Source: a virus (Duplodnaviria; Caudoviricetes). From it: a DNA stretch of 64,000 bases. The translations under genes were made by a program, and so were the position numbers. Every line of letters starts with the position of its first letter. Position 1 is the first letter of the stretch. The notes beneath the pieces were generated by a model. That model saw only the letters and a list, made by a program, of their open reading frames with translations, made no database searches and had not been told where the DNA came from. The stretch lies in IMG/VR virus record IMGVR_UViG_3300034073_003276; one strand, written 5' to 3'. Below, piece by piece: positions 46,086 through 48,556 of this stretch.

Positions 46086-46796
46086 TTATACCACATACTT
46101 CCAAACATATCCTTTATGTTTTTTCCTTTTATTTTGACAAACTAAAGTTATTTTGGAAGTTGAGGCGTTATTTTTTTCTGCGGCAATGGTCATACTATCA
46201 TAAACTTCAATTAAATTTCCATTAGTATCATATTTTCCTATTTTTTTAATTTTATGAGAGGTTCTTTTATATGAAGATATTTTTGATAGTGGTTGATTTT
46301 CAAAAGTTTTCCATTGAAACCCACCACAAGTTTGATATTCTCCTCTTATCACGGCACCAATGCCTTTACAATCTTTACCAAAAACATCATAAGAAGCATC
46401 TCTACAACTTTCATAAACATTGACTAGATTTCCATCCAAATCATAACAAGCAACTTTTTTAGAATTGCTTTGTTTAATTGCTTGTTTCCATCTATCCCCG
46501 TGCTTTTTATTGAGAAATCCACCACCGTCGCCTCCATTAGTCATATTATAATATGGTTTCAAAAGAGAGACATAATACATTTCTCTTTCATTTACTTTAT
46601 TTTCAAAACACTCTTCTATAATTTCAAATACAAAATTTTCAACACCATACTTTCTCATAGCATAATATAATTTTGTATTTCTTACTTTTGAATGAGATTT
46701 ATGCTGTCTCCATCTTACTTTTGGTCTTTTGGATTTACCAATATAAATCTGCTCATTAAGAATATTTGTTATTTTGTAAATGTAGTGTGAAACCAT
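46086..46796 (-). CDS. GIY-YIG homing endonuclease with NUMOD1-like domains
   Basis: YIYKITN...YIGKS; YNMTNGGDG; two YD..GNL..VY.S repeats; TATAAATA at 46828-46821. Confidence 0.85.
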   Translation of the reverse strand: MVSHYIYKITNILNEQIYIGKSKRPKVRWRQHKSHSKVRNTKLYYAMRKYGVENFVFEIIEECFENKVNEREMYYVSLLKPYYNMTNGGDGGGFLNKKHGDRWKQAIKQSNSKKVACYDLDGNLVNVYESCRDASYDVFGKDCKGIGAVIRGEYQTCGGFQWKTFENQPLSKISSYKRTSHKIKKIGKYDTNGNLIEVYDSMTIAAEKNNASTSKITLVCQNKRKKHKGYVWKYVV

Positions 46797-47585: not shown

Positions 47586-47755
47586 TTCTTTCCAAATCCT
47601 TTTGATGTTTGTGCTTCTAACTCTTTAATTTGCTCTTTTACTGTACGAAGTTGTGCTTTCATTTCTTGAATTTTGTCATCAGTATAAAGATGATCTTGTT
47701 TGATTAATCTTTCAAGAAGTTTTACAAGTTGCTTTGCTCTTGATGTTTCAGTCAT
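47582..47755 (-). CDS. conserved cyanophage-type protein (57 aa, ends SKGFGKK)
   Basis: read manually; coupled to thyX. Confidence 0.65.
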   Translation of the reverse strand: MTETSRAKQLVKLLERLIKQDHLYTDDKIQEMKAQLRTVKEQIKELEAQTSKGFGKK

Positions 47756-47921
47756 CTAAGTCAGAATCCTCAAATATTTCGTCGTAATCTAAGATTGGTC
47801 TTTTTCTCACATCTGGTTCTGTATATGAGTAAGCAGAAACATCAGAATACACTTCTGCTTTTAGAGAATCAACCAACAGTTCAAGATTACGGACGATGAG
47901 TTTTAGTTTGTCTTTGTCCAT
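47748..47921 (-). CDS. conserved cyanophage-type protein (57 aa, MDKDKLKLIVRNLELLVDSLKAEVYSD)
   Basis: read manually. Confidence 0.65.
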   Translation of the reverse strand: MDKDKLKLIVRNLELLVDSLKAEVYSDVSAYSYTEPDVRKRPILDYDEIFEDSDLDD

Positions 47922-47950
47922 AAGATACCATTCTCTCTCAGAATTTTAGC

Positions 47951-47982
47951 ATAAAAAAAGGAGGGAATCAATCCCTCCTTTG
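47951..47982 (-). terminator. intrinsic terminator
   Basis: AAAGGAGGGA-TTGAT-TCCCTCCTTT followed by a T run on the minus strand. Confidence 0.8.
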
Positions 47983-47991
47983 AATTTTTTT

Positions 47992-48075
47992 TTACTTAGA
48001 CAACCACTGAATATACAATGAAAGTAAAGTAATAAATGCGACAGACGCAACTGAAATTTGTGCGATGATTAGCAT
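47992..48075 (-). CDS. 27 aa single-TM micropeptide
   Basis: MLIIAQISVASVAFITLLSLYIQWLSK; ATG overlaps the upstream TGA. Confidence 0.55.
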   Translation of the reverse strand: MLIIAQISVASVAFITLLSLYIQWLSK

Positions 48076-48170
48076 CACTTTGCTCCTGCGTTTGCTAGCA
48101 GTGCTTGGTGACGACGTTGCTCTTTTTGCTTTTGCTCTTTAATGAGTTGAAGCACATTGAGTTTTTTCAT
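48075..48170 (-). CDS. 31 aa basic micropeptide
   Basis: MKKLNVLQLIKEQKQKEQRRHQALLANAGAK; AAGGAGG RBS inside the upstream ORF. Confidence 0.6.
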   Translation of the reverse strand: MKKLNVLQLIKEQKQKEQRRHQALLANAGAK

Positions 48171-48307
48171 CACTTATGACCCTCCTTTACAAACTTAACA
48201 CCACGATAGGTTTCGTTGTATTGTTGGGGTTGTTGCATCATTTGCTGTTGATACTCAAGACGCTTTTGAGTATCATACTCTACGCCTCTGTATACGACTT
48301 TAGACAT
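48170..48307 (-). CDS. DUF4278-like 45 aa protein
   Basis: two YRGV motifs (VYRGVEY, TYRGVKF); strong RBS TAAGGAG. Confidence 0.75.
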   Translation of the reverse strand: MSKVVYRGVEYDTQKRLEYQQQMMQQPQQYNETYRGVKFVKEGHK

Positions 48308-48339
48308 TAGGTTTTCTCCTTAGTTTTTAAGTTAAAGAG

Positions 48340-48437
48340 CGTTCCTTCAGTCGGCGTTTGCGTCCGCTATTTGAGAATAGCGAATGAACGTTCCGTTCCG
48401 CGTCGGCTTACTTCCGTCTGGTTTTCCAGATGAACGT
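48340..48437 (-). ncRNA. tandem glutamine-riboswitch-like aptamers (glnA / Downstream-peptide family)
   Basis: unit 1 CGTTCA-TCTGG/CCAGA-CGGAAGTAAG-CCGAC-GCGGAACG; unit 2 CGTTCA-stem-CGCAAACG-CCGAC-TGAAGGAACG. Confidence 0.75.
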
Positions 48438-48443
48438 AAGGTC

Positions 48444-48472
48444 ATTATAGACCCTTTCATCGTATATATCAA
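48444..48472 (-). promoter_or_regulatory. sigma70-type promoter
   Basis: TTGATA-17 nt-TATAAT; predicted +1 at ~48437 coincides with the aptamer 5' end. Confidence 0.8.
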
Positions 48473-48480
48473 TCTTATTT

Positions 48481-48496
48481 TGTAACTTTTGTTACA
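48481..48496. promoter_or_regulatory. NtcA binding site
   Basis: TGTAACTTTTGTTACA is a perfect TGTA-N8-TACA palindrome 8 nt upstream of the -35 element. Confidence 0.7.
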
Positions 48497-48556
48497 ATTT
48501 TTAAAAATCTTAATAGTCAAAAAAATTGCCGGGATTTTTTCCCAGCATTTTTGAAA

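Follow-up and report, generated by a model that had tools for sequence, protein, structure and literature searches.

A probable interlocked double glutamine sensor in the leader of a cyanomyovirus micropeptide operon

Cyanophage glutamine riboswitches, tandem glnA RNAs, the link between riboswitches and DUF4278 genes, and the NtcA-type sites of cyanomyoviruses have already been published, and among the host systems the gifB leader is a validated ON switch (PMC6212724). Here we describe a locus with elements of these kinds in a viral DNA of 64,000 nucleotides (nt), called the window throughout, from the IMG/VR record IMGVR_UViG_3300034073_003276 (source record of 89,329 bases, estimated completeness 36%). 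It comprises an NtcA-type box, a promoter, a leader RNA with two glutamine-aptamer cores (unit 1 and unit 2), three small open reading frames (ORF1, ORF2 and ORF3) and a terminator (Table 1). All elements listed in a first-pass annotation of this DNA were found in their places on the minus strand and in the order given, and the operon it had proposed was complete, with promoter, leader, three ORFs and terminator. We consider it reasonably probable that the locus is a self-contained cyanomyovirus operon gated by nitrogen status, the leader of which would form one interlocked double glutamine sensor.

The junction of the two units, CGGAACGGANCGTTCAT, occurs once in the 89-kb source record and in at least 120 IMG/VR contigs, and these junction loci are the sample behind all comparative tests below. 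Set against more than 120 phage contigs related to it, the elements of the operon stand out as selected features. When the 661-bp locus was searched with blastn, all matches were cyanophage records (24, mostly Kyanoviridae), the nearest relatives being S-SRM01, DSL-LC02, DSL-LC03 and S-CREM1, phages of fresh or estuarine water.

Fold and covariation of the leader RNA

Pairs were counted on the nested structure of the leader (Table 1) in an alignment of 29 sequences, A1. Of the cells of this structure, 93.8% were paired as compared with 84.8% in shuffles, and 15 pairs were changed on both sides as compared with 7.4; none of 500 shuffles reached the observed values, and when the partners were slid against each other, pairing fell from 93.8% to 29-51%. 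Two-sided changes were seen in all five pairs of hairpin 1 and in six of the eight pairs of hairpin 2, where 100% of the cells were paired, as well as in four of the eight pairs of a helix that unites the bases following AGUA in unit 1 with the bases preceding GAAGG in unit 2, hereafter the inter-unit helix. Its pair 34-96 was AU in 21 sequences, GC in 4 and GU in 3, while pair 41-88 was GC in 10, UA in 5 and AU in 4, being formed in 19/19. Among 126 loci there were 29 distinct combinations of the two strands, such as AGUCG:CGACU, AGUCA:UGACU and GGACGGC:GCCGCCC, and the apparent loop base of unit 1 (G, U or A) was matched by C, A or U in unit 2. The hairpins themselves were equally well kept: counted over distinct sequences, pairs 1-4 of hairpin 1 were formed in 80/80, 80/80, 79/80 and 75/79 and showed two to four Watson-Crick pair types each, and hairpin 2 was completely paired both in its short form (28 variants) and in its long form (70 variants).

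Known riboswitch models recognise the two cores only in part. At the gathering score, the Rfam search of the whole window returned no riboswitch, the only hits being two tRNAs elsewhere. In E-value mode, the glutamine riboswitch model RF01739 matched both units, at 48436-48394 with 26.3 bits (E 2.9e-3) and at 48392-48336 with 29.1 bits (E 4.7e-4), but both scores lie below the gathering cut-off of 35 bits; related leaders scored 28.9-35.6 bits. The interlocked architecture described below would account for such sub-threshold scores with the standard models. The type-2 glutamine riboswitch (RF01704, Gln-II) was rejected as a candidate, its match of 13 bits being negligible. The nucleotides for which contact with the ligand glutamine has been reported (C1, G2, ACG at its G, C58 and G59; PMC6698751) are present in both cores, as are the P1 strands CGUUC/GAACG, and the corresponding columns are invariant in A1. 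With covarying hairpins, retained contact nucleotides and a YRG/DUF4278-type gene downstream, the assignment of the leader as a relative of the glutamine riboswitch that precedes such a gene holds.

The two units are complementary in what they lack. Unit 1 has ACGGAAGUAAG and is missing GAAG before GGAACG; unit 2 has GAAGGAACG and carries ACGCAAA where AGUA would be expected, so that each unit is short of one loop-E strand. The two strands that flank P3 in a loop E (AGUA and GAA) are brought together by the composite fold only, and by neither unit alone. With the first CGUUC paired to the last GAACG, the inter-unit helix would fall exactly at the position of P3 in a canonical type-1 aptamer. 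From these comparisons of sequences, the 97 nt most likely form a single type-1 aptamer, the P3 of which contains a second core. In such a fold the first CGUUC and the last GAACG would form the outer P1, hairpin 1 would serve as P2, the inter-unit helix would be P3, and the loop-E strands would come from both units, AGUA being contributed by unit 1 and GAAG by unit 2. A second glutamine pocket, circularly permuted, would then be made at the tip of this P3 by the inner GAACG-GAA-CGUUC helix together with hairpin 2 and ACG.

The first-pass annotation had described the units as tandem aptamers, which the covarying inter-unit helix speaks against, since it joins the units. A classical tandem would consist of two independent glutamine aptamers, each with its own P1, giving a sharper or a two-threshold response, as has been suggested for tandem riboswitches elsewhere. 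Tandem glnA RNAs are already in the literature, RF01739 aligns locally to each unit, and local CGUUC/GAACG pairing is possible within each unit and stays possible because the P1 strands never vary. In a tandem, however, the covarying inter-unit helix would need to be a pseudoknot, GAAG and AGUA would be missing from unit 1 and unit 2, respectively, and the units are spaced by 3 nt, whereas the complete aptamers of cellular tandems lie about 7-25 nt apart. Furthermore, a local P3 of unit 1 (CCG/CGG) would deprive P1 of a G, and the base that it would place in its loop is the one that covaries with unit 2 (pair 41-88). We thus regard two independent aptamers as unlikely and prefer the nested fold, as it needs no pseudoknot, reproduces a known architecture and differs from true cellular tandems, which are made of complete aptamers.

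Some observations nevertheless weigh against the nested, interlocked fold. Neither unit attains gathering-score membership of RF01739. The four P1 strands are invariant, partly since the search patterns required them, and covariation cannot separate an outer and an inner P1 from local P1 helices with a bridging pseudoknot. In addition, the subtype to which the window belongs has two C.A/A.C mismatches among the eight inter-unit positions.

Hairpin 2 is short in the window, S-CREM1, S-PM2, Bellamy and P-TIM68, while in the long variants it encloses a conserved ORF of about 50 amino acids (aa) in 70/70 distinct loci, all outside the window (L003:1356-1527, L004:1620-1800, L008:1305-1485, L010:1265-1445 and 66 others). 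The ATG of this ORF lies at nt 9-11 of unit 2, and in 64/70 its stop falls within the core of the aptamer (GAC-UGA/UAA-AGGAACG), leaving 7 nt to the aptamer's 3' end; the peptides end in ..PEC.WDAND or ..KECKIDAKAD. In S-SRM01 (L002:1546-1722) the stop of the nested ORF is changed from UGA to GGA, and the frame stays open across GGAACG until a UAA in the anti-Shine-Dalgarno (anti-SD) segment. In some contigs (L015, L025, L031, L040, L050 and others) hairpin 1 also holds an ORF, which starts with MSCERF/W.. and ends just before GACGCAAG, so that two genes are nested in one leader in some contigs.

Promoter, NtcA-type box and expression platform

Within the window alone, the NtcA-type box would attract little attention: GTA-N8-TAC was observed 12 times with 9.8 expected, which is not above chance, and the geometry of a box 13 nt from TAnATA was matched by 84 of 100 shuffles of the window. 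The related phages provide the stronger evidence, as a perfect box ending exactly 13 nt before TAnATA was found in 44 of 83 distinct phage promoters and in 1 of 327 control windows, with the N8 spacer varying among the promoters while the 13-nt spacing stays fixed. The consensus of 91 distinct upstream regions reads TGTA-N8-TACA, 8 nt, TTGAC, TAnATA, an inverted repeat around TATAAT, and CGTTCA. In cyanobacteria, a box was found at 31/50 riboswitch-led gif-type genes, as compared with 2/65 non-cyanobacterial loci, and these host boxes usually lie over the -10, a repressing geometry, and stop 10-17 nt short of the aptamer. The reference positions of NtcA are -41.5 for activation and -28.5 for repression, and at gif promoters repression takes place over the -10/start region. 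The centre of the phage box lies at about -50.5 from the start driven by TATAAT, upstream of the -35, or at about -32.5 if TAnATA is taken as the -10. The NtcA box of the first-pass annotation has therefore been borne out in its extended consensus and conserved position, but not at the activating position -41.5 or at the position of the host gif boxes. Box and TAnATA were also considered as a canonical NtcA-activated promoter, and this was rejected, as their spacing is 13 nt and not about 22.

It might be argued that the palindrome is not a working NtcA site, being an A/T-rich upstream promoter element, the site of another factor or a relic, and that transcription is constitutive and early. 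The lack of enrichment within the window and the promoter that is already near consensus at -35 and -10 would fit such a view, as would the unusual position of the box and the related promoters that lack it, both given below. The fixed spacing in spite of a variable N8 speaks against it, and so does the extended TGTA-N8-TACA form, which is the same as that before the riboswitch-led gif-type genes of hosts; in addition, one study reports NtcA-type sites for all 16 cyanomyovirus genomes that it examined (PMC3037559). On balance, a palindrome that is not a working NtcA site seems rather improbable to us; NtcA may bind it, and might then activate, repress or have no effect.

Transcription would start from the strong host-type promoter TTGATA-17-TATAAT, one or two bases before the aptamer. 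The invariant TATATA at 48468-48463, just after the -35, bears a partial likeness to the cyanophage late-promoter motif NATAAATA, and overlapping early and late promoters have been proposed for cyanomyoviruses; in 12 relatives the TATAAT segment is absent and TAnATA abuts the aptamer. Early and late promoters may overlap here by way of the invariant TAnATA. The inverted repeat around the -10 hexamer had a mean stem of 5.96 in 71 relatives as compared with 4.32 in shuffles, and it takes the form of 48 distinct hairpins with compensatory stems, for example GGTC/GACC, GTGTTA/TAACAC and GACGT/GCGTC. A protein might bind to it, or it may fold as the 5' stem-loop of a transcript that begins from TAnATA.

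By analogy with gifB and the ON leaders of Prochlorococcus, glutamine binding would open the access of ribosomes to ORF1, and ORF2 and ORF3 would be translated by coupling through their TGATG overlaps, each with an SD of its own. We infer from the conserved cores that the phage leader binds glutamine, and from the host analogues that it would act at translation with ON polarity. In the window, CUCUUUA pairs with the SD UAAGGAG in the minimum-free-energy folds (-6.4 kcal/mol, z -0.99), a pairing that is kept in the freshwater subgroup of the window. If NtcA represses, its effect would agree with that of an ON riboswitch, as plentiful nitrogen would then allow expression through both.

Against an operon gated by nitrogen in this manner stand several results. 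The SD hairpin of the window is no more stable than shuffles, and SD sequestration had to be dropped as a family-wide platform, being not enriched (26/99 as compared with 374/990 controls); no expression platform common to the family was found in the leaders compared. The phage box is at neither the known activating nor the known repressing NtcA position, and no perfect box is present in 29 of the 83 related promoters. If NtcA activates, the two inputs would be opposed, because 2-oxoglutarate is high when glutamine is low. Finally, the contigs from RNA libraries that are used below cannot give the start, strand or level of a transcript and may contain DNA.

The three peptides and glutamine synthetase

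In 111 of 113 leaders with enough downstream sequence, the next gene encodes a peptide of the YRG/DUF4278 type. ORF1 itself matched Pfam PF14105 with 19.1 bits (E 0.0017), below the gathering cut-off of 25.3, and with 16.2 bits in a six-frame search of the genome. It has the repeated YRG motif of DUF4278 proteins, its nearest Atlas clusters carry PF14105, and it has 272 close homologues in metagenomes. When 58 phage peptides of this kind (module A) were compared by hhalign with 34 N-termini of host riboswitch-linked DUF4278 proteins, a probability of 95.4% was obtained (E 1.7e-8). Judged from these profiles, ORF1 shares homology with the N-terminal part of IF17, a glutamine synthetase (GS) inactivating factor.

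ORF2 (module B) is basic and helical and has 27 distinct free-standing relatives. In other phages, modules A and B are fused in either order, which argues that ORF1 and ORF2 work together; a complex prediction for the two gave a score of 0.00, which bears neither way. ORF3 (module C) belongs to a family of small hydrophobic peptides that keep a Y-x-E motif, and its relatives, with the pattern ..AF..L(I/L)Y.E(I/V).LL.K, come after the corresponding operon in at least 14 contigs; having a single hydrophobic segment, it may be a small membrane peptide. No match was found for ORF1-ORF3 and the peptides of their relatives in NCBIfam, for ORF1 and ORF2 among PDB sequences, or for ORF2 in Pfam. Contigs from RNA libraries cover ORF1-ORF2 and parts of the leader, and one of them crosses the promoter; stretches left uncovered by them are not informative. 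In contigs of three metatranscriptome studies, variant sites fell at codon position 3 in 19 of 24 cases in ORF1 and in 7 of 7 in ORF2, which supports coding selection on both. The three micro-ORFs of the first-pass annotation are thus substantiated by conserved relatives for all three and by third-position variation for ORF1 and ORF2.

The same annotation had suggested that the peptides may tune nitrogen assimilation of the host or lytic timing, and none of the present results concerns the latter. Inhibition of GS by IF17 relies on an IF7-like C-terminal moiety with conserved arginines, while the DUF4278 N-terminal moiety is reported to be dispensable. Only the latter is matched in the phage: ORF1 has no IF7-like helix region, and comparison of the module B profile (74 sequences) with the IF7-like region of 19 host proteins gave 0.1% by hhalign in local, low-mact and global modes. 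The DUF4278 relationship looked for in the ORFs thus stands at the profile level but falls short of the Pfam threshold, and the relationship to IF7 was not found; a tuning of host assimilation through GS inactivation is unsupported by these comparisons. A split mini-IF17, with ORF1 as DUF4278 part and ORF2 as IF7 helix, was among the candidates, and its IF7 half is ruled out by hhalign.

Could the peptides still be phage-made equivalents of IF17 or IF7, switched on at high glutamine and shutting down the GS of the host? Such an idea is attractive in view of the homology of ORF1 to the DUF4278 part of IF17, of the resemblance of the basic and helical ORF2 to IF7, and of the hosts, which pair a glutamine riboswitch with an NtcA box at gifB-type genes and whose picocyanobacterial DUF4278-only proteins have been proposed to be IF17-like. 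It is countered by the assignment of inhibition to the part that the phage lacks, by the near-zero probability for module B and by the lack of any match of ORF1 and ORF2 in PDB, Pfam or NCBIfam beyond the weak DUF4278 match of ORF1; moreover, for marine picocyanobacteria, control of GS by inactivating factors is said to have been ruled out. We hold this explanation to be very doubtful, and GS inactivation by the phage peptides is unsupported by their sequences. Host leaders of the canonical pattern precede genes of full IF17, short IF17, IF7 only and DUF4278 only. Just as improbable, in our opinion, is a two-site sensor (a type-1 aptamer with a permuted pocket on P3) that would, together with NtcA, gate peptides acting on host GS or its inactivating factors; if true, GS could, for example, stay active in the infected cell through a DUF4278 decoy devoid of the inhibitory helix.

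The locus in context and comparison with known systems

The coordinates of the operon and of the parts of its leader are collected in Table 1. On the 5' side the operon is shielded from the upstream gene by the terminator of that gene, and the hairpin of the terminator at its 3' end is the same in S-SRM01. Both ORF junctions, ORF1/ORF2 and ORF2/ORF3, read GTGATG, the stop overlapping the next start, with AGGAG upstream of each.

Table 1. Features of the operon and of its leader RNA (coordinates are those of the window)
Feature	Coordinates	Strand	Basis or description
Upstream-gene terminator	48527..48547	-	8-pair stem, 5 G-C pairs, then T run
TGTAAC-AAAA-GTTACA palindrome (GTA-N8-TAC, NtcA-box consensus)	48481..48496	-	sequence match
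Sigma-70-type promoter TTGATA-17-TATAAT	48444..48472	-	11/12 matches
Inverted repeat GGTC-TATAAT-GACC around the -10 hexamer	48439..48453	-	stem excess over shuffles
Double glutamine aptamer, 97 nt	48340..48436	-	RF01739 matches below cut-off and covariation
Outer P1	48436-48432 with 48344-48340	-	nested fold
Hairpin 1	48430-48417	-	nested fold
AGUA	48412-48409	-	unit 1 loop-E strand
Inter-unit helix (P3), 8 positions	48408-48401 with 48356-48349	-	covariation
Inner helix GAACG/CGUUC	48398-48394 with 48390-48386	-	nested fold
Hairpin 2	48384-48363	-	nested fold
GAAG	48348-48345	-	unit 2 loop-E strand
Possible expression platform, CUCUUUA 48339-48333 with SD UAAGGAG 48322-48316	48316..48339	-	minimum-free-energy folds
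ORF1, 45 aa, DUF4278-like, two YRG motifs, module A	48170..48307	-	Pfam, hhalign
ORF2, 31 aa from ATG 48170 (32 aa from GTG 48173), module B	48075..48170	-	conserved relatives
ORF3, 27 aa from ATG 48075 to 47992, module C	47992..48075	-	conserved relatives
Intrinsic terminator, 10-pair stem 47981-47957, then T run	47950..47981	-	bidirectional in form

The locus is flanked by typical genes of T4-like cyanophages, a DUF6433 protein upstream and ThyX downstream. Next in order comes a gene of 57 aa (47748-47921 of the window, minus strand; MDKDKLKLIVRNLELLVDSLKAEVYSD...DYDEIFEDSD), which has a promoter-like site of its own and stands behind the riboswitch operon in most of the related contigs as well; no family match was obtained for it. 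Beside thyX lies an ORF of 236 aa (46086-46796, minus strand), the translation of which reads YIYKITN...IYIGKS at a GIY-YIG-like start and suggests a homing endonuclease. In 24 contigs, L029, L040, L103, L120 and L125 among them, modules A-B(-C) are followed downstream by one more conserved peptide, the fourth, with 51-58 aa and the pattern M.NY.YH.DDMDKDNR.PACYQL.YRGC.YWSCY.IHL.EWFE.., which the window lacks.

In a literature search that was itself incomplete, neither the interlocked fold nor the operon of three peptides and its fusions nor the fixed module of box, promoter and riboswitch was found, and a search for DUF4278 together with phage gave nothing relevant. Cyanophage glutamine riboswitches have so far been annotated as single or "tandem", and the covarying inter-unit helix points to an interlocked architecture. 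The window holds the smallest form of this fold, 97 nt with no gene in a loop, and owing to this compactness it is the RNA best suited in practice to probing, calorimetry and structural work on stoichiometry and cooperativity. The three conserved micropeptides lack annotation in most genomes and are abundant in freshwater RNA-library contigs. The viral operon links a conserved NtcA-type box with a glutamine sensor in a geometry unlike that of the host, which allows a direct test of whether the phage reads both nitrogen signals.

Among the described systems is the glnA riboswitch annotated in S-CREM1 (PMC9964418; OP535465 164232-164330), which is the same double unit of 99 nt, near-identical and placed before a small YRG gene; the whole RNA is reported to score 44 bits (PMC9964418). 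It was annotated as a single cis-regulatory RNA, with no analysis of fold or gene. Its peptide is the fused A-B form, and its promoter is without the TATAAT hairpin segment.

The type-2 riboswitch and the DUF4278 'IF17-like' proteins of Prochlorococcus and marine Synechococcus, such as PMM1846 (PMC6212724, PMC6316151), are similar to the phage system in their short DUF4278-only product and in the NtcA motif nearby, and the host element was shown to be ON. The ACGCA core variant of these hosts is present in unit 2 of the window and in both units of marine relatives. On the other hand, the phage leader has a negligible RF01704 match and neither the P2 nor the pseudoknot of Gln-II, and the phage adds the B and C peptides. 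As to the box, GTA-N8-TAC in intergenic promoter regions of T4-like cyanophages was reported by Sullivan et al. 2010 (PMC3037559); the box described here is held at a fixed 13 nt to a promoter that drives a riboswitch, a link not described in the part of that paper available to us.

Tandem glnA RNAs (Weinberg et al. 2010, PMC2864571) share with the phage leader the presence of more than one glutamine aptamer core. The canonical aptamer is common in marine genomes of the SAR11, SAR116 and SAR86 types, often in two or three complete successive copies (L132-L251). In the cellular tandems of SAR11-, SAR86- and SAR116-type genomes the aptamers are complete, each with AGUA and GAAGGAACG and about 7-25 nt from the next, whereas in the phage neither unit is complete, the gap between the two is 3 nt and they pair with each other.

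The gifB leader of Synechocystis sp. PCC 6803 (RF01739, PMC6212724) shares with the phage leader the CGUUC/GAACG helix, a covarying P2, ACG and the loop-E strands, and it is likewise the 5' untranslated region of a DUF4278-type gene with an NtcA-consensus box in its promoter region. Unlike type-1 leaders of RF01739, each phage unit taken alone lies below the Rfam cut-off. In comparison with gifB, the phage gene corresponds to the N-terminal-like part of IF17 only and the phage box lies upstream of the -35 instead of over the -10, while the phage leader has two cores within 97 nt, a covarying helix that joins them and loop-E strands split between the two units.

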